A stretch of DNA of 64,000 bases, from positions 768,001-832,000 of the forward strand of contig CAVUVW010000014.1 in assembly GCA_963745035.1 (NCBI GenBank), read 5' to 3'. This document shows, piece by piece, positions 35,321-50,296 of this stretch; position 1 is the stretch's first letter; the number at the start of each line of letters is the position of its first letter. The stretch is from an uncultured delta proteobacterium (GTDB lineage: Bacteria; Desulfobacterota; Binatia; UBA9968). The translations under genes and the position numbers were made by a program. The notes under the pieces are model-generated. The model ran no database searches. It had not been told where the DNA came from and saw only the letters and a list, made by a program, of their open reading frames with translations.

Positions 35321-35434
35321 GAGGAGATCCGGTGGAACCGCAGGTTTTCGAGAGTCAAATTCACAAGCTTAACGTTGGAATGCGAATCCTAAACACTCGT
35401 CCGATTGCGGGCGACTACAGAAAGGAGAGCACAT

Positions 35435-36191
35435 ATGAAGATCGTAGTCATCGGCGGCACCGGCCTGATCGGCTCGAAGACCGTCGCCATTCTGCGCGAG
35501 GGCGGCCACGAAGTCGTCGCCGCCTCGCCCAATACCGGCGTCAACACCATCACCGGCGAGGGCCTCAAAGAGGCCATGGCCGGCACGCAGGTGGTGATCG
35601 ACCTCGCCAACTCGCCCTCTTTTGAAGACAGGGCGGTGCTGGAATTCTTCGAGACCTCCGGCCGCAACCTTCTCGCGGCGGAGGCCGCAGCCGGCGTCCG
35701 GCACCATGTCGCGCTCTCCATCGTCGGAACCGACCGGACGCCCGACAATGGCTATTTCCGCGCCAAGGTCGCCCAAGAGAAACTGATCGAGACCTCCGGC
35801 ATCCCCTACACCATCATCCGCTCGACCCAGTTCATCGATTTCATCGGCCGCATCGCCGATTCAAGTATGGATGGAAACAGTGGTCAGGGTTTCGCCCGGC
35901 CTGTTCCAGCCCATCGCGTCGGACGACGTTGCTGCCAGCGTCGCCGATGTGGCGCTCGCGGCGCCGCGCAACGGCATCGTCGAGATCGCCGGCCCGGAAC
36001 GAGCACCGTTCAACGAAATCGTCGCCCGCTATCTGAAGGCGGTCGGCGACCCGCGTGAGGTCGTGAGTGACCCCGAGGCCCGATACTACGGCGGCCGGGT
36101 CGAGGAGCGCTCGCTCGTGCCGTTGGGCGAAGCGCGCCTCGGCCGCATCGGTTTCGACGAATGGCTCCGCCGCTCCGTAGCTCGAGTGTAA
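35435..36191 (+). CDS. NmrA/SDR family NAD(P)-binding protein (frameshift ~35878)
   Basis: MKIVVIGGTGLIG, YFRAK, QPIASDDVA. Confidence 0.85.
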
Positions 36192-36348
36192 GTTAGCCAG
36201 GCAGGGTCGACGCCCAGATCAAGTAGTGCGCCCGACCGGCGATGAACTGCCCGTCACCCTGCCTAAACTTCTTTTCCGGCTTGGCGCCGCACCGCGGACA
36301 CGGGTGCCAGACCCTAAAGACCATCTTGAAACTTTTAAGTGATAGTCG

Positions 36349-36612
36349 GTGAAGCGCTATGCTGACGGAGTGCGGCGGACAGAGGGTGTGCCGATTCAAA
36401 TCAGAGTGGGTTTGAATTCCGGAGAAGGAGTGGTCGGCGCGATCGGCAGCGACTTGAAGATGGACTACACTGTGGTCGGTCAGGCCGTGCATTTAGCTTC
36501 TCGTATGGAGCAAATGGCGACTTCGGGATCCGTCATGATCACTAAAGACACACTGCAACTGGCCGAAGGTTTTGTGCAGGTGAAGTTGCTCGGCCCGATT
36601 CGGGTAAAGGCA
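36349..36612 (+). pseudogene. class III adenylate/guanylate cyclase internal fragment
   Basis: IRVGLNSG.VVGAIG...DYTVVG.AVHLASRME...LGP..VK; N- and C-termini absent. Confidence 0.75.
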
Positions 36613-36649
36613 ATGGGGACGTTGCCTCCAAACAATGTCTGGAGCAGTA

Positions 36650-37658
36650 CTACAGTACGATATTGTTTCTGGGTTCCAATGGCGGCGGCAAGTCGGTTTC
36701 GCCAAGCATCTCCCGCAAATCTATTTCCGCGGTCCGGCACATTTGTGAGATCGGGACGTCATTCGGACTCCTATCAAACGGGTTTTCGGTGCTCTCTCCG
36801 ACTCGCTCCAGCGAAGTGTACATCCAGGAAATCAATACACTGAACGGGATGACCAGCCAAACCATGTTTCCCTTGATCACACCCTCCACGCTGTCATTGA
36901 GCTTGTCGAATTCCCTGAGCAACCCGAAGGGAAGCAGAAGGCAGAACAATTTGATGAAAAAGGAATTGATCGATCGCAAATTGCCTTGGATACGGGAAAT
37001 CCTTGATACGCTCACATCTGCCTTGTAGCAAGAGGAAATCCTTGATTGACTTTTGCATGTCGACGAACTGCGTCACGATAATCGCCTGGCTGGCGAGAAG
37101 CCCTTTTATCGTTTTGCTTTGAAGGCTCATGATCTGGGTTGCCTTGCTGCCCGTGGCAAGAATCTGTTTTCGCTCCGCATCAGGAAGGTATTTCGCCAGC
37201 TCCGTTTCCAATGCCGTTTGCATTTCAGGGATGGAGTAATACTTCAAATACTCTGCATTGTGTGCCTTGCTTGTGGTTTCCCATGCCCTGTTCTCCCGCA
37301 GCTGATAGCGCAATGCAGTCAACCAGGCGAGGTGGCGATAGACAAGCTCTTTTGATTTTTCGGCATTGTCAAAAGAGTCCCTGCTGAGTGTTCCCCAGGC
37401 CCGACTGCTGCTTATGATGTCGCTCCATATTTGGCGAGCTTCCCAGGTACGATTGTAGGTTTGCACGTTTTTGAAACCAACGATAAACGCGGTGGCTGTT
37501 CCCAGGAGCGCCACCACCGTCCAGGGAATGCCCAGCCATTTGATGTTCCCGATCTGGTACGCAACAACAGGTACGACTCCCAGAACAATCAGGACGTAGA
37601 TATCCCTTCGTGTCCAATTGAGGAACTCCGAAAGTTTGTATGATTTGCCAGTGTGCAT
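36650..37658 (-). CDS. bestrophin family ion channel (frameshift ~36975)
   Basis: GFKN..TY.R.WEAR..W, GRCERIK.FPYP, ENPF...NDVP. Confidence 0.85.
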
Positions 37659-38095: not shown

Positions 38096-38257
38096 TCCGG
38101 CGGGTCTATGAACGCATGAGGTCGGGCCTGCAGCTCGTGCCGCATATCCGGATTGTCTCTCAAAAACGGCTGACAAATTCGCAGTATCTTTTTGTGTCGC
38201 GCTGTTATGATTTCAATTGCATTGGAAAAATCTCATGCGGATGATAGAGAGGCTCAT

Positions 38258-38596
38258 ATGGAAATTACCGAGCACAGACCCGCGGACGTCGTTACCCTGA
38301 GCCTCTCCGGAAAACTGGACACCAACACCGCCAAGGCGTTTCAGGATCAAATTCTCGCTCGCATCGAATCGGGTGAGCGGCGCATCGTCGTCGATCTTGA
38401 ACAGCTCGGTTATATCAGCAGCGCCGATCTGCGCGTGATCATGCTGGCGGGCCAGCGGCTGAGCAGCGTGAACGGCAAGGTCGTGCTGTGTTCGCTCAAA
38501 CATCCGATCAGAGAAGTGTTCGACATAGCCGGGTTTGTATCCATTTTTTCCATTTACGGCTCCCACGACGACGCAACCAAGGCTCTGCAAGCGTAA
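38258..38596 (+). CDS. STAS domain anti-sigma factor antagonist
   Basis: LSGKLD, IVVDLEQLGYISSA.LR, VFDIAGF. Confidence 0.9.
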   Translation: MEITEHRPADVVTLSLSGKLDTNTAKAFQDQILARIESGERRIVVDLEQLGYISSADLRVIMLAGQRLSSVNGKVVLCSLKHPIREVFDIAGFVSIFSIYGSHDDATKALQA

Positions 38597-38922: not shown

Positions 38923-38941
38923 CCGCTTGGACACTATCGAA

Positions 38942-40903
38942 ATGTGGACGGCAATTCGCAGGCTGCTATTCGGGTTCACACTGATCCTCCTAGCTTCGGC
39001 CATGCTGCTGATTTCCGATCTGCACCAACGCCGATCGGCCGGCAAAATCCCGCGCCTCGCCATCGTCCAGCACTCGGCTAGCGCTGTGTTAGACGAAGGC
39101 GTCCTGGGAGTACTTGACAGTCTGAAAGCAAACGGCCTGGTCGACGGCAAAAACATTAGCATAGAGCGGTTCAACGCCGATGCTGATTTCGCCGTTGCCA
39201 ATGCCATTGCCGAGCAGGTGGTGGCGGCCGGCTTCGATATGGTTGTAACGATCAGCACTCCATCTCTTCAGACGGTGGCAAAAGCCAACAGCTCTCAGAA
39301 ACTCATTCAGGTCTTTGGGATTGTGGCTGATCCCTTTCGCGTTGGTGTTGGCATCGGTCGAAAGAGTCCTTTAGATCATCCCAAACGTCTGGTCGGCGTT
39401 CCTACACCCCTGCCGGTGGCGGATTCTTTCCGGCTCGCGAGAAAGCTCTTTCCAGGGCTCCAGTCTGTCGGGGTTGTGTGGAACCCGAGCGAAGCAAATT
39501 CCGAAATCACGACGATGCAGGCGCGCGAGATCTCCCGGGAGCTAGGAATTAACCTTAGGGAGGCACACGTCGACAGCTCCGTCGCCGTAGCCGAAGCGGC
39601 AGCCGCACTGACCGCTCAAGGGGTCCAGGCGATCTGGGTGGGAGGGGACAACACCGTGAACTTGACGCTGGAGGCGGTGGTCTCGGTGGCACGCAAAGCT
39701 CGAATCCCGGTTTTTTCTGCCGTCCCAATGGAACCAAATCGGGGAACGCTCCTAGATATCGGGACCAACTTTTACGACGCCGGCAGAATGACCGGCAAGC
39801 TGGCGGCGGAAATCCTCGGCGGAGTCGATCCCGCGACGATTCCTATACCGGACAAGATCCCGCAGAAGCTTGTGGTGAACAAGCAGGCCCTCAAGGGATT
39901 GAAAGACCCCTGGCAGTTTCCGGAAGAACTGCTGGCCAAAGCAGACGTTTTCATAGGCGAGGATGGGGTTCATAGGAAATCGCAGACGGCCATACGCAAG
40001 CCGCCCGAAGGGCGCCTTTTCAAAGTTGGCCTTGCTTACTTCGCTCCCGAGCCCGGAGCGGATGCTTGCATGGAGGGGCTCTTCGGCGGACTCAAAGATC
40101 TGGGTTTTGTCGAGGGCAAAAACCTGCAGTTACGCAAGGCGCACGCCCAGGCAGAGATCGTCAACATTCATTCTATCCTGCAGAACTTCGACAACGAAGA
40201 CGTCGAGCTTATTATTGCCATGACCACGCCGGTTCTGACCGCTGCGGTCAACGCGGTTAGGAAGAAACCTGTGGTCTTTACCTACGTTTACGATCCCATC
40301 GCTGCCGGCGCAGGTAAGACACCCGCGGATCATCTGCCCAACATCACAGGAACTGGATCGTTTCCTCCGGTCGGTGACACTTTAGATGTGATTCAGCAAC
40401 TGGTGCCGCAGGCACGCGCCGTCGGCACGCTCTACAATAGCTCCGAGGCCAATTCCAGAAAAGTGATCGAGGTCGGCCGCGAGCTGTTTAAAAAGCATGG
40501 CATCAAACTCGAAGAAGTTACGGTCACCAACACGAGCGAAGTCTTCCAGGCGGCGCAGGCACTGACCACCAGAAAAATCCAGGCCATCTGGATCACCGGC
40601 GACAACACCGCCATCCAGGCCTTTGAAGGCATCGCCAAGGCAGCCGCCGATGCCCGCCTACCACTCGTCATCAACGACCCCGAATTCACCGAAAGAGGCG
40701 CTCTAGTCGCCGTGGGGATTGGCTGGCAAAAAACATGTCAAGGCGCCGCCAAGAGGGTTGCGCAGGTGTTACTCGGCGAGAAGCCGCAAAACTTACCTTT
40801 CGAAAATGTCGTGGTGAAAAAGGTTGTCTTGAATTCCGACATCGCACGCAAGCTGGGGATAACCTTTCCTGAAAAGCTGATCAACGAGGCGAGCGCGGGT
40901 TGA
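38942..40903 (+). CDS. tandem two-domain ABC substrate-binding protein (ABC_sub_bind type)
   Basis: Two repeats: TP...DP..G...VG..N.SEANS...QAIW..GDNT...A..A..P. Confidence 0.85.
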   Translation: MWTAIRRLLFGFTLILLASAMLLISDLHQRRSAGKIPRLAIVQHSASAVLDEGVLGVLDSLKANGLVDGKNISIERFNADADFAVANAIAEQVVAAGFDMVVTISTPSLQTVAKANSSQKLIQVFGIVADPFRVGVGIGRKSPLDHPKRLVGVPTPLPVADSFRLARKLFPGLQSVGVVWNPSEANSEITTMQAREISRELGINLREAHVDSSVAVAEAAAALTAQGVQAIWVGGDNTVNLTLEAVVSVARKARIPVFSAVPMEPNRGTLLDIGTNFYDAGRMTGKLAAEILGGVDPATIPIPDKIPQKLVVNKQALKGLKDPWQFPEELLAKADVFIGEDGVHRKSQTAIRKPPEGRLFKVGLAYFAPEPGADACMEGLFGGLKDLGFVEGKNLQLRKAHAQAEIVNIHSILQNFDNEDVELIIAMTTPVLTAAVNAVRKKPVVFTYVYDPIAAGAGKTPADHLPNITGTGSFPPVGDTLDVIQQLVPQARAVGTLYNSSEANSRKVIEVGRELFKKHGIKLEEVTVTNTSEVFQAAQALTTRKIQAIWITGDNTAIQAFEGIAKAAADARLPLVINDPEFTERGALVAVGIGWQKTCQGAAKRVAQVLLGEKPQNLPFENVVVKKVVLNSDIARKLGITFPEKLINEASAG

Positions 40904-41346
40904 AGGCAGCGCTCACGGAACGCGTCCGGCGCCTGAACCTTGGACTCGAGGACCGTCTGGGCAATACGATCGGCAGCCTGTCCGGCGGCCAGCGACAGGC
41001 GCTTACCTTGCTCATGGCCACCTGGGTGAGACCTAAACTGTTACTCTTGGATGGGCACACAGCAGCTTTGGATCCGAAAAGCGCGGATCAGGTGATCCGA
41101 TTGACCGAAGATATCGTGTCGCGGGATAAACTGACCACCCTGATGGTAACCCATTCGATGCAGCAAGCAGCCAGTCTGGGCGACCGTCTGGTGATGATGC
41201 ATCGAGGCCGGATTATTCATGATCTGTGTGGCGCGGAAAAGCGCCGCGCGCGGGTCGATGATTTGCTGGTGCGCTTCGAGGAAGTCAGGCGCCAGGAGCA
41301 GCTCGATGAGAGCGCCGCGGAGATGCTGCGGCGGGGATATGTCTGA
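40900..41346 (+). pseudogene. C-terminal half of an ABC ATPase
   Basis: LSGGQRQ, LLLLDG (Walker B E>G), MVTH present; Walker A and the permease gene absent. Confidence 0.8.
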
Positions 41347-41631
41347 TCAGTTCTGCGCTCTCAGTCCTAGCAGGGGAAACGGCCTCAAGTTGTGTGCACG
41401 CCGCAAAAATCTTCCTGGTGTAACCCGTTTGAGACAGAAACTATGTTGATCGGGTCAAGTCCGACCGAATCAACGGTCGCTGTCGTGTTAAGTTTCAGTT
41501 TCATCTCGAGCATTGAGACGCGAGGTACGCTCACTCCAACCGAGTTGTCCCCTTGTGGTGTCAGCGGATATTCGAAATCTTCCACGAGAAAATGTCATCC
41601 GGTATAAGTGATCGTTCCAATAGGAATCACT

Positions 41632-43341
41632 ATGGCAAAGAAGCCGGCCAGCCTGATTTATGGTGTCGATGATAAACCCCCGTTGACCGCGTCGCTGCTG
41701 TTGGGGCTCCAGCATGTCTTCGTGATGCAGTCCGGTTGGGTGATGGTCGTGATAATCGTCACCACCATCGGCGGTACTCAGGAAGAAGTCGCCAACGTGC
41801 TCCGGATGTCGATGATTGCGTCCGGAATCGCGACCATTCTGCAATCTTTACCTAACAGTCCGTTCGGTTCTGGCTATTTTTGCCCCATCAGCTGCGGACC
41901 TGCATACATCTCCGCGTCAATTTTGGCAGGCAAGGTTGGCGGCTTGAGATCAGTCTTTGCCATGACGGTGATCTCAGGCCTCTTCGAGGGGCTGCTCGCT
42001 CGGGTCTTGCCGCGATTACGGCCGCTTTTCCCTCCCGAAGTCACCGGACTGGTGGTGGCGATGGTAGGGATAGAGATTGTGGCCTTGGGTTGTCCCAGGT
42101 TTCTCGGATTTCAGGACGGCGGCGCGGGTCCGCAAGGAACCGCCACTGCTGTTGCGATAGTGACGTTGGCCGCGATGATCGGACCGACCGTATGGGGTAA
42201 AGGGAGCCTCAAGTTATATCCTGTACTGATCGGTCTTGTGGTGGGTTACTTGTTCGCTTATTTTTTTGGTGTCTTTGAAACGGAACGGTTGCAGGAGATG
42301 CTCGCCGCGCCAATGATCAGCCTGCCACGGAAGGTTCACACGGACTGGTCGTTTGATCTCTCTCTTCTTCCCGCATTCCTCATTGCCAGCCTGGCTTCGA
42401 CCTTGAAAAGTGTGGGCGACTTGACCCTGTGCCAGAAAATCAACGACGCCGACTGGAAACGGACCGACATGCAGTCGGTCAGTGGAGGGATTTTCGCCGG
42501 CGCAATCGGTACCGGACTATCGGGTTTGCTTGGCGGGATCGGCCAATCCACCTTCTCCAGCAACGTCGGTCTTTCCCTCGCCACCGGGGCCACCAGCCGC
42601 TCGATCGCCATTCCTTGCGGCATCCTGATGATCCTGCTGGCTTTTTTACCCAAGCTCGCGGCCTTTTTTGCCGTGATGCCCGACCCCGTGATGGGCGCGA
42701 TCATCATTTACGTGGCTTGCTATATGATCCTTGCCGGCGTTCAGGTGATCACGTCGCGCATGCTCGACGCTCGGCGAACTTTCGTGGTCGGCATCGCTCT
42801 GATCTTCGGCCTGAGCGTCGACATGGTTCCCGGGCTATACAGCAACGTGCCCGATTTGATTCAGCCTCTGTTTTCGTCGTCTCTCGCGATTTCCACGGTC
42901 CTGGTGGTTTTTCTGAACCTGCTTTTTCGGATCGGCATTACCAAGCGCCAGGTTCTGGAGTTGACGCCCGGTGTCGATGGTTCGCAGAAAATCTTTGAAT
43001 TCATGGAGACCCAGGGGAGCGTTTGGGGAGCGCGCCGTGAGGTAATCCAGCGCGCGACGGCGGCTCTCAATGAGTTCGTCGAGTCCGCAGCCGCCCTGGA
43101 TCTTGTGAAAGGAAAGGCCCAAGCCGAGGTCAGTTTCGACGAATTCAATCTCGATATGGATATTCGCTACGATGGCGAGCTGATGGAGTTTCCCAGCCGG
43201 CGACTGACCGAAGACGCGCTTCTCGCCGATGACAAGGCCGTCGCCAGCCTCTCAGGCTTTCTAATTCGCCAGTACGCCGACAGGATCAAAGCTGAAACGG
43301 CCAATGGCCGGTGTCGGATCCAAATGCATTTCGATCATTGA
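41632..43341 (+). CDS. NCS2 (xanthine/uracil permease) family transporter with C-terminal RsbW-like extension
   Basis: YGVDDKPP, GLQH, LFPPEVTG, TFSSNVG..ATG..SR, P.PV.G; extra ~135 aa cytoplasmic domain. Confidence 0.85.
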   Translation: MAKKPASLIYGVDDKPPLTASLLLGLQHVFVMQSGWVMVVIIVTTIGGTQEEVANVLRMSMIASGIATILQSLPNSPFGSGYFCPISCGPAYISASILAGKVGGLRSVFAMTVISGLFEGLLARVLPRLRPLFPPEVTGLVVAMVGIEIVALGCPRFLGFQDGGAGPQGTATAVAIVTLAAMIGPTVWGKGSLKLYPVLIGLVVGYLFAYFFGVFETERLQEMLAAPMISLPRKVHTDWSFDLSLLPAFLIASLASTLKSVGDLTLCQKINDADWKRTDMQSVSGGIFAGAIGTGLSGLLGGIGQSTFSSNVGLSLATGATSRSIAIPCGILMILLAFLPKLAAFFAVMPDPVMGAIIIYVACYMILAGVQVITSRMLDARRTFVVGIALIFGLSVDMVPGLYSNVPDLIQPLFSSSLAISTVLVVFLNLLFRIGITKRQVLELTPGVDGSQKIFEFMETQGSVWGARREVIQRATAALNEFVESAAALDLVKGKAQAEVSFDEFNLDMDIRYDGELMEFPSRRLTEDALLADDKAVASLSGFLIRQYADRIKAETANGRCRIQMHFDH

Positions 43342-43735: not shown

Positions 43736-44191
43736 ATGCGAAGTCGTCTCGCTCTCTTGACTATTATCGTTCTCGGACTCGTCCTCGCCGCGCGGCTCTG
43801 GGCACAGCAACCGTGGGTGCAGCCGCCGGGAAAGGCTCTCGGGGGATTTCAGGGGTATTGGATGGGCATCGATCCACTGGACGGAGGTGACTCGCGCCGA
43901 AGCCTCGTACAACTGAGCAACGGCCGATTCGCGATGGCCGGCCGCGACACCGCCCTCACGCTGTGTGACGGGACCGATCGCGGCTTCATCAGCTTCGCCG
44001 ATGGCGTGGTGCTGGAAAAAAATGTGCTACAGAGCGACCGCCTGACTATCGCCTGCTCCAACAGCGGCGCGTTGGTGGTATTGCGCGTCCGGTACGATTT
44101 GGCCAGCAACGGCGTGATGATCGAGAATACGGCCACGCTGGACGGGGCGCCGGTGAGCAGGATCGTTTTTCACAAGGTGAGCCACGATTAG
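43736..44191 (+). CDS. secreted hypothetical protein
   Basis: GGAGG RBS, signal peptide, two Cys. Confidence 0.65.
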   Translation: MRSRLALLTIIVLGLVLAARLWAQQPWVQPPGKALGGFQGYWMGIDPLDGGDSRRSLVQLSNGRFAMAGRDTALTLCDGTDRGFISFADGVVLEKNVLQSDRLTIACSNSGALVVLRVRYDLASNGVMIENTATLDGAPVSRIVFHKVSHD

Positions 44192-44571: not shown

Positions 44572-44925
44572 ATGGAATTGGAAATCAAAAATCTGTCCGA
44601 CCAGATCACCCACCTAGGCCTTCGAGGCCGGCTGGATACTACCGGAGTGGGAGAGGTCGAATTAAAGTTTACCGGTCACACCGTCCCGAGTGGAAAGCCG
44701 CTCCTTTTGGACATGTCCGAAATCACTTATGTGTCCTCCTTGGGGTTGCGGATGCTTTTGACCGTTGCCAAGGCACTCGGTCTCCGTGGGGCCAAAACGG
44801 TCCTCTTGCGGCCTCAGCCGAGTGTGCGTGAGATCCTCAGCGTTTCCGGATTCGATCAACTGATGACCGTCCACGATGACGAGGCGACAGCGCTGGAATT
44901 CCTGGCGCAGGCCAAGGGCCGTTAA
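44572..44925 (+). CDS. STAS domain anti-sigma factor antagonist
   Basis: LRGRLD, LLDMSEITYVSSLGLR, ILSVSGF. Confidence 0.9.
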   Translation: MELEIKNLSDQITHLGLRGRLDTTGVGEVELKFTGHTVPSGKPLLLDMSEITYVSSLGLRMLLTVAKALGLRGAKTVLLRPQPSVREILSVSGFDQLMTVHDDEATALEFLAQAKGR

Positions 44926-45340: not shown

Positions 45341-47254
45341 GTGACGATAAGAACACAAACACTGCTGATGGTGACCCTGTTGCTCGCCGTCGCGGTCCTC
45401 GCCACAGCGGGAGCGATGAGTTGGAACTCGCGCCGGGGATTGCTCGCCGAAGGCGAAACCCAGGGGTTGGTCCTCGCTCGCCTTCTGGCTCGCAGCGCGG
45501 CCTTCGGCGCCCAAGTGAGCAGCGATGTCGAGCAGGCGATCGGCGAGCAGATGATCGTCGAGGCCACGATGGCGGCGCATTTGATAGCTCTGGCCGAGGC
45601 TGCGGGAGTGGGCGCCAAGGAGATCAATCGGCGGCTCAAGCAAATCGCCGACGACACGGTGCTGGACGAAATCTGGATCACCGATGAGAAGGGGCATGCT
45701 TATTTGAGAAACATGCCGGAAATAGACTTCACGTTCAGTCCGGACCGGGAGCGGCAACCCCAAGCGCACGTTTTTTGGCCGCTGCTCACGGGAAAGAACA
45801 AAACCGTCGTTCAGGAAGCGCGCCAGCGCGAAATCGATACGCAGGTTTTCAAGTACGTGGGCGTGGCGGGGGTGGATAAGCCGCGCATCGTCCAGGTCGG
45901 TTACCACGCCAGCATGCTTCGACAACTGCGGCAGCGGGTGGGGCTGACTCGTCTGGTCAATCAGCTCGTTTCCGAAGGAAGCGTTGTCGCGATTCGGGTG
46001 CTCGATAAGGACATGAATACCGTGGAATATGCGGAGAAGATGCGGGAAAACAAATTGCCTGAGCCGAGCGAGAGCGACCTGGCAAATTTCCGCAAGCTGG
46101 CGAGCCAAGGACAAACCGACGCTTATGTGGAAGCGTCTCTTCTAAAGCTCGTTGTCCCCATCGGGGAAGAAGGCGGAGAGCTAAAAGGCGGAGCCATTGT
46201 CGTCGCTCTTCCCACGGATCACATCCAGGCTGCCATTCACAACAGAAGTCATCTCGCGGTGGTCGTTAGCGGACTGGTATTGTTGCTCGGGTCGATGATC
46301 GCCATCTTCGGGGCCAAAAGGATTTCCCAGCCCATCGTCGAGTTGACGCAGATGACCCAACAGGTCGCGGGGGGCGATTTTACCCAGAGGATCGCCATCG
46401 CGGCAAAGAACGAAATTGGCACGCTGGCCGCCTCGTTCAACGAGATGACGCGGCGCTTGAACGAATCCATCGAACATCTCAAGGAAACCACCGCGGCGAA
46501 GGAACGGATCGAAAGCGAGCTGAAGATCGCCCACGAAATCCAGATGAGCATGGTGCCGAAGATCTTTCCGCCGTTTCCGGACCGTAGCGAGTTCGATATT
46601 TTCGCCGCCTTGGTGCCGGCCAAGGAGGTCGGCGGCGATCTTTACGATTTTTTCTTTCTCGATGACGACCGCCTGTGCTTTGCCGTCGGCGATGTCTCCG
46701 GCAAGGGAGTCCCGGCGTCGCTTTTTATGGCTGTGACCAAGACTCTGTTCAGAGCCACCGCCGCCCACGGCGGCACTCCGGGTGAAATCCTCGCGCGGAT
46801 GAACAACGAGATCTGCCGCGATAACGACTCCTGTATGTTCGTGACGCTTTTTTGCGGCATCCTGGATATCCGCACCGGTCAGATCGATTATAGCAACGGC
46901 GGCCACAATCTGCCCTATCATCTTGGCGGCGACGGCGTGAGCCCGTTGGGAAAATTCGGCGATAGAGCCCTGGGGCTGGTGGAGCAAAGCTCGTATGCAT
47001 CCGGACGAGTGGTTCTCAGCCCCGGCGAAGCCCTGCTGGTTTACACCGATGGGGTCACCGAGGCCATGGACTCGAGCGACGCGCTTTACTCCGATCAGCG
47101 GCTCGAGCGGTTTTTAGCGAGCCATCGCGACTCTTCTCCGCGCCAAATGATCGGCGATTTGATCGACGACGTAAGGCGGTTTGCTGGCGCAACGCCGCAA
47201 TCCGATGATATCACCGCTCTCGCGCTGCACTATTTTGGGACCACGCAACAATGA
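45341..47254 (+). CDS. membrane sensor PP2C phosphatase (extracellular domain + HAMP + SpoIIE)
   Basis: 2 TM, HAMP (PI..L...EIG.LA.SFN.M), EVGGDLYD, GDVSGKG, YTDGVTEA, SDDIT. Confidence 0.92.
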   Translation: MTIRTQTLLMVTLLLAVAVLATAGAMSWNSRRGLLAEGETQGLVLARLLARSAAFGAQVSSDVEQAIGEQMIVEATMAAHLIALAEAAGVGAKEINRRLKQIADDTVLDEIWITDEKGHAYLRNMPEIDFTFSPDRERQPQAHVFWPLLTGKNKTVVQEARQREIDTQVFKYVGVAGVDKPRIVQVGYHASMLRQLRQRVGLTRLVNQLVSEGSVVAIRVLDKDMNTVEYAEKMRENKLPEPSESDLANFRKLASQGQTDAYVEASLLKLVVPIGEEGGELKGGAIVVALPTDHIQAAIHNRSHLAVVVSGLVLLLGSMIAIFGAKRISQPIVELTQMTQQVAGGDFTQRIAIAAKNEIGTLAASFNEMTRRLNESIEHLKETTAAKERIESELKIAHEIQMSMVPKIFPPFPDRSEFDIFAALVPAKEVGGDLYDFFFLDDDRLCFAVGDVSGKGVPASLFMAVTKTLFRATAAHGGTPGEILARMNNEICRDNDSCMFVTLFCGILDIRTGQIDYSNGGHNLPYHLGGDGVSPLGKFGDRALGLVEQSSYASGRVVLSPGEALLVYTDGVTEAMDSSDALYSDQRLERFLASHRDSSPRQMIGDLIDDVRRFAGATPQSDDITALALHYFGTTQQ

Positions 47255-47694
47255 CGGAAGAGCTGGAGATCGAGATCGGCAACAAGCTTTCCGAGCTGGG
47301 CCGGATCCATCAGACCTTGACGGATTTCTGCCGGCGGCACGGTCTCACCGCCAAAGTTGCGCGCGATCTCAATCTCGCGCTGGAGGAAATTATCACCAAC
47401 ATCATCATCCATGGTTACACAGACGACCGGGAACACATCATCAGCGTGCATCTCAACGTGCGACCCGGCGAGGTGTGGGTCGAAGTGAAAGACGACGGCC
47501 GGCCGTTCAATCCGCTGGAAGCGCCCGAGGCCGACACCACGACACCTTTAGAGGAAAGGTCGATCGGCGGACTGGGAATCCATCTCGTGCGCAAGGTCAC
47601 GGATGGGCTGGAGTACGAGCGGGTAGGCGACAAAAATCTCTTCACCCTAAAAAAGAAAACTCAGGGTAAAAGAAGCTCGAGTCCGCCAGACTGA
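47251..47694 (+). CDS. RsbW-like anti-sigma Ser/Thr kinase (HATPase_c_2)
   Basis: LALEEIITNII.HG, DDGRPFNP, GGLGIHLVR. Confidence 0.9.
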   Translation: MTEELEIEIGNKLSELGRIHQTLTDFCRRHGLTAKVARDLNLALEEIITNIIIHGYTDDREHIISVHLNVRPGEVWVEVKDDGRPFNPLEAPEADTTTPLEERSIGGLGIHLVRKVTDGLEYERVGDKNLFTLKKKTQGKRSSSPPD

Positions 47695-47857: not shown

Positions 47858-48343
47858 CTAAAAAAGCCATTTGTAAAGCAATGGGTCTGGAAGCGCTTCC
47901 TGAGCAATTTCATTAATAATGAAATAAACAACTCCTACGACGACACCGGCAACCACAATAGATTTCGTCGCGCTGACCTGGTGTGACGCCAGTAGGTAAA
48001 GAAGAACAAAAAGCCCAACGCCAGCGTATATTCCGACGATGTAGATACTGATATATAGGCCTACCAAGATTCCAAAGTACTTGATGGCACCCAACAGATT
48101 TTCTCTTTCTGTGCTTTTATCTTTATCGAAACCAAAATCCATGATCTGCGAGCTTTCAGATACGCCGCCCCGGAGCTCTTTGATAAACTGGAAACAACAC
48201 AAAATAAATATTGTCCCTCCGCAAAAAACCGGTACCAATGCTGTCTTAAAGTCCCATTTCAAAAGCGCATAAACACCAGCGGAAAATGATATTGCGATCA
48301 TGGAAAGCGTAAAATAGCTCTCACTATTAATCTTCATCTTCAT
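47858..48343 (-). CDS. tripartite tricarboxylate transporter TctB family protein
   Basis: Small 4-5 TM protein downstream of tctA. Confidence 0.7.
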   Translation of the reverse strand: MKMKINSESYFTLSMIAISFSAGVYALLKWDFKTALVPVFCGGTIFILCCFQFIKELRGGVSESSQIMDFGFDKDKSTERENLLGAIKYFGILVGLYISIYIVGIYAGVGLFVLLYLLASHQVSATKSIVVAGVVVGVVYFIINEIAQEALPDPLLYKWLF

Positions 48344-49857
48344 CCCCTTCCACTGGTTTCGGTGCTATGCGCATCACGGCCTCATCTTTGGCCATCTGCC
48401 TTTCTTTCAGATAAGTCCACACTTGGTTTGCCACAAAGATAAGAATCATTCCCAGCACCATGGGGCGCCAAAGCCATGAAATGCCCATCAAAGTGACGGA
48501 TAGTACGAAATTCCACTCGGCAATATCCGAAAGTACAAAACCCACGATAAGAGGCGGGCGAGCCCAACCATATTGTTTCATGACAAAACCGAGCGCGCCG
48601 AACAGGATCATGACCAAGATGTCACCGATATCCTTGGTTCCAATGTAAACCGCGAGCACAAGAAAAGTCGTGATCACTGCGATAAGGTAATGTTTAGGGC
48701 AGGTAGAGCAGTTTTGCTATTTGAGCCGTAGCAAGGAGGCAAACACCACCGCCAACAATATTGGCAAGAGCCAATGCCCATATGATCTTGTAAGTGATTC
48801 CGATATCGGTCGTCAGCATATTGGGGCCCGGGTGGATACCTGCTATCAGGAACGCGCCAAGCACGAGCGACATACTGGCACTACCAGGTACGCCGAATGC
48901 TAAAGTAGGTATGAAATCACCGCCCTTGCACGAATTGTTCGAGGCTTCCGGCGCAATGACCCCCCGTACATCCCCTTTCCCGAACCGGCTCTTGTCTTTT
49001 GCCGACTGCACGGCATGGGCGTAGGCAAACCAGTCGGCAGTCACCGAACCGACGCCCGGGACAATTCCGATCCAAACTCCTATCAGACTACCACGGACCA
49101 ATAAGGCCCAATGGCGAATGACGTCTGCCATTCCTTGCAGTTGTCCGCGCAAGAGATCACCGGTGATTTTTCCTCCCGGGATCGACCCCTTTGTTGTCGC
49201 CATCTTGATCACTTCTGGAATCGCAAACAGCCCAAGAGAAACCGTGACGACTTTCAGTCCGTCGATTAGATAGGGGATATCGAAGCTGTAGCGGTAAATA
49301 CCGCTCGTCGGAGATCGCCCAATGGTCCCTAAAAGTATTCCCAGAAATCCGGCAGCCAACCCTTTGCACATGTTTCCGCTGCTTAGCGCACCCAGCATCG
49401 TCAATCCCCATAAGGCCACCACAAAAATTTCAGGCGGCCCAAATGCCAAAACAAAAGGTCTTAGAATGGGGATCGACAACCAAAGGCAAATTGCACCCAG
49501 CACGCCTCCGATGATCGAACTGGTATACGAAGCGCCAAGGGCCCGCGATGCCTCTCCATTAAGGGCCATCGCATGCCCATCCAGAAGTGTAGCGGAAGCG
49601 CCTGCGGTAGGTGGCACGCCGATTAATATCGTAGGAATCGTATCACTCGTAATGGTCACCGCCATGATAGCGGTCATCAACACGATCGAATATTGGAAAT
49701 CCAAAGTGTAGGTCAGGGGCAGTAAGAGAGCCAGAATGGTTATTCCCCCCAGGCCGGGGATAACTCCCAAGATCAGTCCTATCAGTGTTCCGCCGACAAG
49801 AAACCCTACAGTCGGCCAAGATAAAATCTGTATAAAAGAACCCCAAAATGAATCCAT
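48327..49857 (-). CDS. tripartite tricarboxylate transporter permease TctA (frameshift ~48695)
   Basis: G.IPGLG, DGH.MA..G, GVIAPEASNN, PTLAFGVPG, RPPLIVGFVL. Confidence 0.88.
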
Positions 49858-50296
49858 GCCATATCCTTCCGTAATCGGGATCCAGAGATGACGCCCCGCC
49901 GTTTCAAGCACCTCATCGGTTATTCAATAAACGGCAGGTCCATTTCGACCACACTACTTTGGACATCACTTTTTCCTGAGGCTGTACGTTCCCCGGATGT
50001 CAAACACTGCTTAGCGATGAAACAGGAAGCCTAAGACGGCGAGAACACCGCAAAAAGAAAAGATATGATGCACGAGCCGGCACTTTATCTGACAGTCGGC
50101 AACGCTGCCTCCTACTCACCCCGATCCGTCTCAATGGGCGCCATGAGGCTCCTCAAACCCCGCGCTGCGACTTGAGCTTCTGGCCAAATGGACGCGAGAT
50201 ATTGATCGATCTCGCGTATGTATCCCTTCCGGCTGATCCTTTCCGAAAGTCAAACGCCGGAAAAGAAACGACGAATAGGAAAGTCACATAGAGAAT

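Follow-up and report, generated by a model that had tools for sequence, protein, structure and literature searches.

The window analysed here, a stretch of 64,000 nucleotides (contig CAVUVW010000014.1 of assembly GCA_963745035.1, from an uncultured delta proteobacterium of the Binatia), carries on its forward strand a gene for a permease of the NCS2 family that is extended at its C-terminal end by a domain related to the kinases RsbW and SpoIIAB. The gene and its two parts, in positions of the window, are as follows:

41632..43341, + strand: whole gene, an NCS2/SLC23-type permease with a C-terminal RsbW-like putative pseudokinase domain (open reading frame (ORF) of 569 aa plus stop)
41632..42930, + strand: transporter core, residues 1–433, 14 transmembrane (TM) helices in a 7+7 fold (Pfam PF00860, NCBIfam NF037981, Foldseek match to UraA)
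42943..43338, + strand: tail domain, residues 438–569, GHKL/Bergerat fold of the SpoIIAB/RsbW type without the ATP-binding motifs (AlphaFold2 (AF2), Foldseek, hhalign)

The reading frame has a GTG start at 41608 and an ATG start at 41632 and ends at 43341; the ATG, which gives the 569-residue version, is the start used by close homologs (e.g. P0136). The Pfam model Xan_ur_permease (PF00860) spans residues 21–400 with an E-value of 2.4e-60 (204.7 bits against a cutoff of 27), and the broad NCBIfam subfamily NF037981 (NCS2_1, 'purine/pyrimidine permease') is matched at 59.4 bits with a cutoff of 40; TIGR03173 pbuX (255.1 against 414.15 bits) and TIGR00801 ncs2 (202.2 against 291.8 bits) stay below their cut-offs. 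A full-length AF2 model built from a 40-sequence alignment reached a predicted local distance difference test (pLDDT) of 89.1 and a predicted TM-score (pTM) of 0.81. Its membrane part is closest to UraA (8oo1_C; Foldseek E 1.5e-16, TM-score 0.83 normalised to the target), followed by UapA and SVCT1, and SLC26 proteins are more distant (SLC26Dg 5da0_A, E 2.8e-9). Sequence and fold both assign the gene product to the NCS2 family, with a signature that deviates. The window copy of the gene is intact; it shares 97% identity with the counterpart in L001, one of the related loci described below, and 39 full-length relatives of 540–640 aa align with the window protein from end to end at 32–48% identity. 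In the model the last TM helix ends at residue 433 (nucleotide 42930) and the first strand of the tail begins at 438, leaving a linker of 4 residues between TM14 and the tail. The initial annotation, made from the letters alone, had recognized an NCS2 permease with its last TM helix ending near 42930 and a tail of about 135 aa, in close agreement with these results.

The tail was modelled separately by AF2 from a 62-sequence alignment (pLDDT 95.7, pTM 0.88) and consists of a strand, two helices, a beta-hairpin, a loop (the lid), a helix and a second beta-hairpin. Its top Foldseek match in the PDB is SpoIIAB (1til_E, E 4.7e-7, TM-score 0.71), and anti-sigma kinases (SpoIIAB, RsbW, UsfX and similar proteins) take the first 13 places among the distinct PDB matches, with E-values of 4.7e-7 to 2e-5 and TM-scores of 0.6–0.8. 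Besides 1til, the matches comprise SpoIIAB (1th8, 1tid, 1l0o), RsbW (6m36, 6m37), UsfX (8ih8, 8jzt), the RsbW domain of Rv1364c (3ke6) and SiaB (6kko), and the SpoIIAB and RsbW entries 1til, 1th8, 1tid, 1l0o, 6m36 and 6m37 lie between 4.7e-7 and 8e-6. Histidine-kinase catalytic and ATP-binding (CA) domains come later in the list, at E-values around 1e-2.

Single-sequence comparisons did not detect this relationship. The window tail has no match in Pfam or NCBIfam (HATPase_c_2 gave no hit at E ≤ 1), and BLASTP between the tail and the RsbW-like protein encoded at 47251 aligned 23 residues at an E-value of 0.12, so that a match seen by eye is not provable from the two window proteins alone. The tail alignment set against the single RsbW sequence by hhalign was also too weak (probability 9%), a sequence-profile search of the PDB with the tail alignment returned spurious helical matches (spike-derived designs and others) and no kinase, and a protein atlas search, taken as a lead only, gave at rank 2 a cluster with HATPase_c_2 on 15% of its 379 members. 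At the level of families, HATPase_c_2 is matched weakly by 9 of 62 tail homologs (best E 4.3e-4), and a profile built from 22 true RsbW-like proteins of related loci finds 11 tails over their whole length with E-values from 1.6e-5 to 0.011, its other new hits being two HATPase-containing proteins only. Comparison by hhalign of the 62-sequence tail alignment with a 24-sequence alignment of true RsbW-like kinases gave a probability of 96.1% and an E-value of 3.4e-9 over 129 columns. The alignment to the 47251 kinase drawn by eye in the initial annotation has exactly the register found by hhalign, in which ALNEFVE faces ALEEIIT(N), DIRYDG faces EVKDDG and LSGFLIRQYADRI faces LGIHLVRKVTDGL. Since the AF2 model, the Foldseek matches, the sequence-profile matches and hhalign agree, homology of the tail to RsbW/SpoIIAB-type kinases is established, and the fold is the one foreseen for it rather than an unrelated one.

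The residues that bind ATP in these kinases have been lost. In the hhalign register the window tail has Ser485 at the position of the N-box Asn, Tyr513 at that of the G1 Asp and ASLS(G) at that of the G2 GGLG. Across 78 tails from genome loci, the N-box position is occupied by Ala (34), Ser (34), Thr (7), Val (1) or Leu (1), with one gap, and by Asn in 0 of 77; the G1 Asp is replaced by Tyr in 78 of 78 and retained in none; and of the G2 box a single Gly is left, in 53 of 78. The same loss is found in representatives from metagenomes (62 and 40 sequences). The missing N-box Asn and GxG loop had already suggested a catalytically dead domain in the window protein, and judging from the sequences the tail is a dead pseudokinase throughout the family. 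According to section 3.3 of PMC7340262, Glu49 of Bacillus subtilis RsbW contacts the phosphorylatable Ser56 of RsbV. The equivalent of this glutamate (Glu481 of the window protein) is Glu in 76 of 78 tails, and the equivalent of RsbW Tyr118 keeps its aromatic character (Phe in 60 and Tyr in 12 of 78). The near-invariant residues of the tail are W465-G-A-R468, F502-D-E504, Y513, G515, D550, F567 and H569. The C-terminal H-F-[DE]-H (residues 563–569, 43318–43338) is itself near invariant, the terminal His being present in 77 of 78 tails; unlike the fold, the WGAR, FDE and C-terminal HF-x-H motifs are the tail's own and not kinase features.

The tail occurs as part of a large family and is obligatorily joined to a permease. 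A word-indexed search with residues 430–569 retrieved 446 proteins at E ≤ 1e-3, the best 120 of which all have PF00860 and tails 81–98% identical to that of the window. An exhaustive phmmer search of 1.84 billion cluster representatives (clustered at 50% identity) found 564 at E ≤ 1e-3, including 271 at E ≤ 1e-10. Among the 150 proteins listed, all 39 of 540–640 aa have the tail at the C-terminal end; shorter tail-bearing proteins mostly start within the last TM helices and look like fragments. In the genome loci the NCS2 core is present in 69 of 69 tail-bearing ORFs of at least 540 aa, the other 9 being contig-end pieces or split genes, and no stand-alone copy of the tail was seen in 80 loci. 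Nine cluster representatives of 112 aa (P0140, P0151, P0152, P0166, P0205, P0206, P0222, P0243 and P0245) start at a conserved Met of the tail (tail position 28); these could be stand-alone tail proteins or fragments produced by gene calling.

The genes that surround the permease gene in the window encode the components of a partner-switching system:

38255..38596, + strand: STAS protein 1, 113 aa (Pfam STAS, E 5.1e-17), which groups with STAS genes adjoining SpoIIE-RsbW fusion genes in related loci
44572..44925, + strand: STAS protein 2, 117 aa (Pfam STAS, E 5.4e-16), candidate docking partner of the tail
45341..47254, + strand: membrane sensor phosphatase with an N-terminal sensor region, HAMP and SpoIIE/PP2C domains (Pfam SpoIIE, E 1.4e-48; HAMP, E 2.3e-15)
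47251..47694, + strand: true RsbW-like Ser kinase, HATPase_c_2 (Pfam, E 1.1e-27; PDB RsbW 6m36_A, E 1.1e-8)

The window kinase retains the N-box Asn50, DDG and GGLG, and the 46 STAS sequences compared all have the Tyr-x-Ser-Ser phospho-site motif and, in the second loop, the Asp. To judge by the Pfam matches and these motifs, the window holds a full partner-switching set of PP2C phosphatase, STAS protein with its Ser, and HATPase_c_2 kinase. STAS 2 groups with STAS genes that lie 291–352 bp upstream of NCS2-tail genes in L001 and L005. A sigma factor, the classical output of such a module, is encoded by none of the 56 window ORFs scanned (10 + 46 of the 73 called, the rest being short or overlapping), which makes the transporter a plausible output of the module. 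The phosphatase and kinase ORFs (45341–47254 and 47251–47694) overlap by ATGA in different frames. A fused SpoIIE-HATPase_c_2 ORF of 775–781 aa is found in L001, L004, L006, L011 and L013, with 817-aa dCache versions in L063 and L080, and the window differs from L001 at the SpoIIE/RsbW junction by 1 nt in length; the split in the window may reflect either natural variation or an indel error.

Linkage of the fusion gene to partner-switching genes, for which a survey of homologs had been proposed, proved strong and phylogenetically wide. A genome scan with the pattern [SRA]FDEFNLD gave 388 stretches, 318 of which, from species-representative genomes and for this one motif variant, were confirmed by tblastn; the best 80 were kept with at most 10 kb of flank. 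The scan was seeded with 20 tails sharing FDEFNLD, and the 80 loci are therefore biased to this variant and to the closest relatives of the window. Their bacterial sources are Binatia, Vicinamibacteria, Sporomusa, Syntrophales/Smithella, Desulfobacterales, Verrucomicrobiota, Ignavibacteriales, Armatimonadota, Dehalococcoidales and Nitrospirae, and 15 of the 80 are archaeal, from Methanothrix and other methanogen-related metagenome-assembled genomes (MAGs). Counted from unfiltered six-frame segments, so that small genes are included, at least one STAS, SpoIIE or RsbW gene lies within 500 bp of the permease gene in 42 loci and within 5 kb in 45 (STAS in 41, SpoIIE in 39 and a separate RsbW in 24). 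All three genes are present in 20 loci and STAS with SpoIIE but without a separate kinase in 15, in which the tail is the sole RsbW-like domain within 5 kb; 9 of the 15 archaeal loci are linked. The partner-switching genes lie on the same strand as the permease in 115 of 119 cases, and their density is 4.9 per 10 kb in the first kilobase of flank against 0–0.85 at 5–10 kb, a background at least 6-fold lower.

The same families emerged from an unbiased all-against-all clustering of 1168 ORFs, in which SpoIIE/RsbW/sensor proteins (49 loci, by single linkage) and STAS proteins (33 loci) are the top neighbours and the next families reach 14 and 12 loci; in a Pfam check of the neighbour calls, 44 of 44 STAS, all but three of 40 SpoIIE and all but two of 23 RsbW proteins were confirmed. 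Linkage is scattered over most deep clades of the protein tree, and the unlinked loci are concentrated in a few clades, e.g. 9 Smithella-type loci and the Sporomusa group. Sporomusa silvacetica DSM 10669, with two copies (L020 and L024), is one of the unlinked carriers. Gene order varies among the linked loci, and the sensors of the phosphatases vary by clade (HAMP, 5TMR-LYT, dCache, GAF and receiver domain (REC)). Since clades, gene orders and sensor domains all differ, the association of tail and module has been retained through much rearrangement. Proteins of 382–412 aa with an N-terminal STAS domain and about 300 residues without a Pfam match at E ≤ 1e-5 are encoded in four loci (L005 2619–3854, L064 4633–5844, L067 4633–5844 and L070 6901–8046).

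Binding of a STAS protein to the tail, anticipated in the initial annotation, was modelled for the tail (62-row alignment) and STAS 2 (37-row alignment). The complex scored 0.67, while the best of 3 controls scored 0.01; the score mark is reached by 58 of 80 solved complexes and by 2 of 110 mismatched pairs, a rough guide since custom alignments were used. At least 96% of the contacts recur between runs, with a partner pLDDT of at least 84. In the model the contacts of lowest error join Ser55/Ser56 of the STAS protein to Glu481 (tail position 51), Glu484 and the L540-S-G-F-L helix, and the loop with Asp22 and the third helix of the STAS protein pack on helices 1–2 and the lid of the tail. The predicted interface is formed by helices 1–3 of the tail and, on the side of the STAS protein, by the loop with Asp22, by Tyr53, by Ser55/56 and by the third helix; section 3.3 of PMC7340262 describes the same elements for RsbW–RsbV. 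The model supports, as a prediction and not as proof, docking of STAS 2 on the tail in the canonical RsbV–RsbW pose, and it shows a tail that looks like a STAS binder.

Taken together, we consider it probable, with clear reservations, that the gene encodes an NCS2 carrier whose dead RsbW-like tail serves as a dock for a STAS protein and that docking alters transport. The computations establish the fold and ancestry of the tail, the loss of its ATP motifs, its constant fusion to NCS2 and the gene linkage; contact with the STAS protein is supported by a model, and the dependence on phosphorylation, the effect on transport and the direction of the signal are inferred. A signal would cause the SpoIIE-type sensor phosphatase to dephosphorylate the STAS protein and so promote docking; the free, unphosphorylated STAS protein of the adjacent module would then dock on the RsbW/SpoIIAB-like tail, its phosphorylatable Ser meeting the retained Glu481 and the degenerate G2 helix. 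Docking would change transport, either by activation or by block, and the true RsbW-like kinase would reverse it by phosphorylating the STAS protein again. Presumably STAS would bind in its unphosphorylated state only, since the phosphate of a modified Ser56 would lie opposite Glu481, just as it does in the classical system.

Several observations weigh against this reading. The most invariant residues of the tail (WGAR 465–468, FDE 502–504, Asp550, Phe567 and His569) lie mostly outside the predicted STAS interface, and may mark a second functional site or the place where the tail touches the membrane domain. Of the six residues through which RsbW forms hydrogen bonds with RsbV, four are altered (Arg23, Asp42, Lys44 and Ser48 correspond to Phe455, Arg474, Thr476 and Asn480). 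Conservation of the predicted interface does not significantly exceed that of the remaining domain (mean entropy 1.55 against 1.70 bits, one-sided p 0.22) and is equal in loci with and without neighbouring partner-switching genes. Furthermore, the good score of the complex may stem from likeness to the solved RsbW–RsbV and SpoIIAB–SpoIIAA structures. As regards the genes, 35 of the 80 loci have no partner-switching gene within 5 kb, and the 33 loci with at least 5 kb on both sides comprise 17 linked and 16 unlinked ones. In the 15 loci with STAS and SpoIIE only, no nearby kinase accounts for phosphorylation of the STAS protein. In the window itself the genes are spaced by gaps of 285–415 bp, so that the cluster is less compact than that of many relatives, and its gene arrangement departs from that of L001 and L005.

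A transceptor or decoy would draw on the same evidence from fold, linkage and docking. Here the conformation of the transporter, set by its substrate state, would expose or hide the tail, which would then sequester or release STAS protein in its unphosphorylated form and thereby determine the output of the module elsewhere in the cell. Through the short linker of 4 residues to TM14, movements of the membrane domain would be closely transmitted to the tail, and substrate-site residues that are non-canonical and variable (Lys 20, Asp 8 and Arg 5 of 40 at one position, Ser 16, Ala 15 and Gly 6 of 40 at the other) might suit a sensor. We nevertheless hold it to be rather unlikely: the linked phosphatases already have sensors of their own (HAMP, 5TMR-LYT, dCache, GAF, REC) and need no second one, no alternative output such as a sigma factor or an enzyme recurs in the loci, and the transporter core shows good conservation and no trace of decay.

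A purely structural role, in which the tail binds no STAS and supports dimerisation or stability of the NCS2 dimer, a part that has been suggested for STAS in bacterial SLC26 proteins, with linkage due to co-regulation or to shared ancestry of a cassette, appears less probable still. RsbW dimerises through helix 1 and strand 1, as described in PMC7340262, and the tail retains both elements; the unlinked loci, the unremarkable conservation of the predicted interface and the altered RsbV-contacting residues would all fit such a role. It is hard to reconcile with the tightness of the linkage (a partner-switching gene within 500 bp in 42 of 80 loci; the permease's strand shared by 115 of 119 genes), which survives varied gene orders and sensor domains and both prokaryotic domains and is difficult to account for if no functional tie exists. 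Despite the loss of the ATP residues, nearly all tails have kept the Glu for the phospho-Ser, and the complex model passes its controls.

That the tail is a membrane-anchored anti-sigma factor, holding a sigma factor as RsbW and SpoIIAB hold SigB and SigF until a STAS protein releases it, would agree with the fold, which is that of anti-sigma factor kinases, and with an ECF-type (extracytoplasmic function) sigma gene 556 bp downstream in one locus (L020). This is very improbable, as the 56 window ORFs scanned and the recurrent neighbour clusters of the 80 loci contain no sigma factor, and the 97 nearest-neighbour ORFs scanned in the 36 loci first counted as unlinked contain a single one, of the ECF type; ECF sigma factors are not known as clients of RsbW and SpoIIAB. 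A tail that still binds ATP as a sensor or kinase through non-canonical residues is hardly credible, for all the retained Bergerat fold, the lid-length loop and the 15 loci with no other kinase nearby, given an N-box Asn in none of 77 tails, a G1 position that is always Tyr (Asp in 0 of 78) and a G2 box down to one Gly in 53 of 78.

In the HMMER alignment of the permease to UraA, Lys259 (LKSVGD) faces the Glu of AEHVGH in TM8 of UraA, and Ser310 (TFSSNVG) faces the Glu of TYGENIG; these two UraA residues we take to be Glu241 and Glu290, which bind the substrate. Both deviations had been noticed from the sequence at the start, and they stand. The acidic substrate residue of TM8 is missing in the window protein. 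The NAT signature of TM10 is [Q/E/P]-N-x-G-x-x-x-x-T-[R/K/G]; that of the window protein, S-N-V-G-L-S-L-A-T-G, misfits at the first position (Ser310) only. Across the family the two positions are occupied by the residues given above, with neither Glu nor Gln among the residues listed, which cover 37 of 40 sequences. The proposal in the initial annotation that the ligand could be an anion gained no support, nor anything against it, beyond these substitutions. Close homologs that bear a name are annotated as 'xanthine permease XanP' or 'solute carrier family 23 protein'; with the binding site altered, the current annotation as a xanthine permease is doubtful and probably misleading.

The genomic context gave few pointers to a ligand. 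No riboswitch was found by Rfam search in the window between 37500 and 48000 or in 7 other loci, a promoter and terminator scan gave signal at chance level, and no metabolic neighbour recurs in the neighbour clusters or in scans of the neighbours in unlinked loci, which are heterogeneous (97 of 122 selected ORFs scanned, in 36 loci by the first count; L047, one of these, proved linked in the six-frame search). A few nucleoside-related genes lie near the permease gene in unlinked loci, namely Bmp-type binding proteins in L014 and L015, an adenosine kinase in L048 and an amidohydrolase in L018. In L008 (235–2361), L010 (722–2854) and L012 (2027–4156), proteins of 709–711 aa that combine a nitrile-hydratase-alpha-like region with STAS, PALP (pyridoxal phosphate-dependent) and ACT domains are encoded on the same strand, 177–224 bp upstream of the NCS2-tail gene; a STAS domain joined to an enzyme of amino-acid metabolism might point to the pathway served.

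Among known systems, UraA, UapA and SVCT1 (NCS2/NAT/SLC23) have the same 14-TM 7+7 fold, and sequence membership in their family is clear. UraA aligns to residues 10–434 only, whereas the window protein adds a C-terminal domain of about 132 residues that none of the solved NCS2 members matched here possesses. With SpoIIAB and RsbW the tail shares fold, topology, homology at the profile level, a predicted STAS-binding face and the Glu for the phospho-Ser; it differs in lacking the N-box Asn, the G1 Asp and the Gly-rich G2 box, in being fused to a transporter and in having no sigma partner in sight. SulP/SLC26 carriers are related in their 7+7 elevator fold, and their cytoplasmic regulatory domain likewise forms the C-terminus and comes from the same pair of STAS and anti-sigma proteins. 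Those carriers have STAS fused in cis, whereas here the fused part is the STAS-binding partner, and STAS itself is a free protein, presumably open to phosphorylation; the window protein has no SulP match by sequence, Xan_ur_permease being its only Pfam match, and its tail has the fold of RsbW and not of STAS.

Systems such as SiaB–SiaC of Pseudomonas (PDB 6kko) and Rv1364c (PDB 3ke6) likewise bring together PP2C phosphatase, STAS-type switch and RsbW-type kinase; both PDB entries are among the fold matches of the tail, and SpoIIE-HATPase_c_2 fusions occur in the related loci. SiaC presumably acts on a diguanylate cyclase; the output proposed here differs in being a membrane transporter reached through a pseudokinase adaptor. 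In the GlnK–AmtB system and in inducer exclusion by EIIA-Glc, a small signalling protein docks on a transporter according to its state of covalent modification; this is a functional analogy only, the protein families being unrelated. No description of an NCS2 protein with an RsbW-like domain was found in the full-text literature, a search that covered neither subscription journals nor supplements. A review of STAS-only proteins (PMC8256260), in the portion of its text available, makes no mention of permease, xanthine or pseudokinase, and the word 'C-terminal' does not occur in the corresponding portion of the NAT/NCS2-hound classification paper (PMC6308229).

Should a free STAS protein control transport by docking on the tail, the 7+7 elevator transporters could have two mirror-image forms of STAS control, in cis in SLC26 and in trans, through a pseudo-RsbW adaptor, in a subfamily of NCS2. 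The transporter would then be a direct output of partner switching, and the purpose of many sigma-less 'orphan' STAS/SpoIIE/RsbW modules would be explained, a generalization to which we give slightly less than even chances. Partner-switching modules are very common and many are without a known output, and post-translational control of transport would join the outputs if the proposal is true. Transporters of the SLC4/23/26 fold matter in medicine and physiology, and their regulation by cytoplasmic domains is debated; a fused STAS-binding domain with a free STAS protein would offer a natural, separable system for STAS control of an elevator transporter. The family concerned is large, with 564 cluster representatives and 318 confirmed loci for one motif variant, and extends over Bacteria and methanogenic Archaea.

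Some further observations concern the neighbourhood of the gene. Between the permease and STAS 2 lies an ORF of 151 aa (43736–44191) with a hydrophobic N-terminus that resembles a signal peptide; it has no Pfam or NCBIfam match and no homolog in the 80 loci. Upstream, a 658-aa protein with two ABC_sub_bind (PF04392) domains (38927–40903) is followed by an ORF of 148 aa (40900–41346) that corresponds to the C-terminal half of an ABC ATPase only, without the Walker A region. L005 encodes, at the matching place, a full-length ATPase as well as a protein of 412 aa with STAS at its N-terminus; at this site the window has apparently suffered a deletion. Farther out (35405–37658 and 48327–49911) several more genes look split or truncated. 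Two NmrA-like ORFs overlap, as do the two ORFs that make up a bestrophin-like gene; a guanylate-cyclase fragment spans profile positions 88–174 of 183 only, and a TctA gene is followed by a separate ORF of 116 aa. Pseudogenes, with some local gene decay, or assembly indels are the likely cause. Tandem duplicates of the NCS2-tail gene are found in L001 (6885–10420), L005 (6829–10417), L012 (4383–7932) and L007 (1–2064), the copies lying on different branches of the tree. Tails 74–98% identical to that of the window (L001–L013) come from MAGs labelled as delta proteobacterium, Binatia, Aminicenantes, Gammaproteobacteria, Terrimicrobium, Vicinamibacterales and Aestuariivirgaceae, and such similarity across unlike labels could reflect noise in binning or labelling or recent horizontal transfer.

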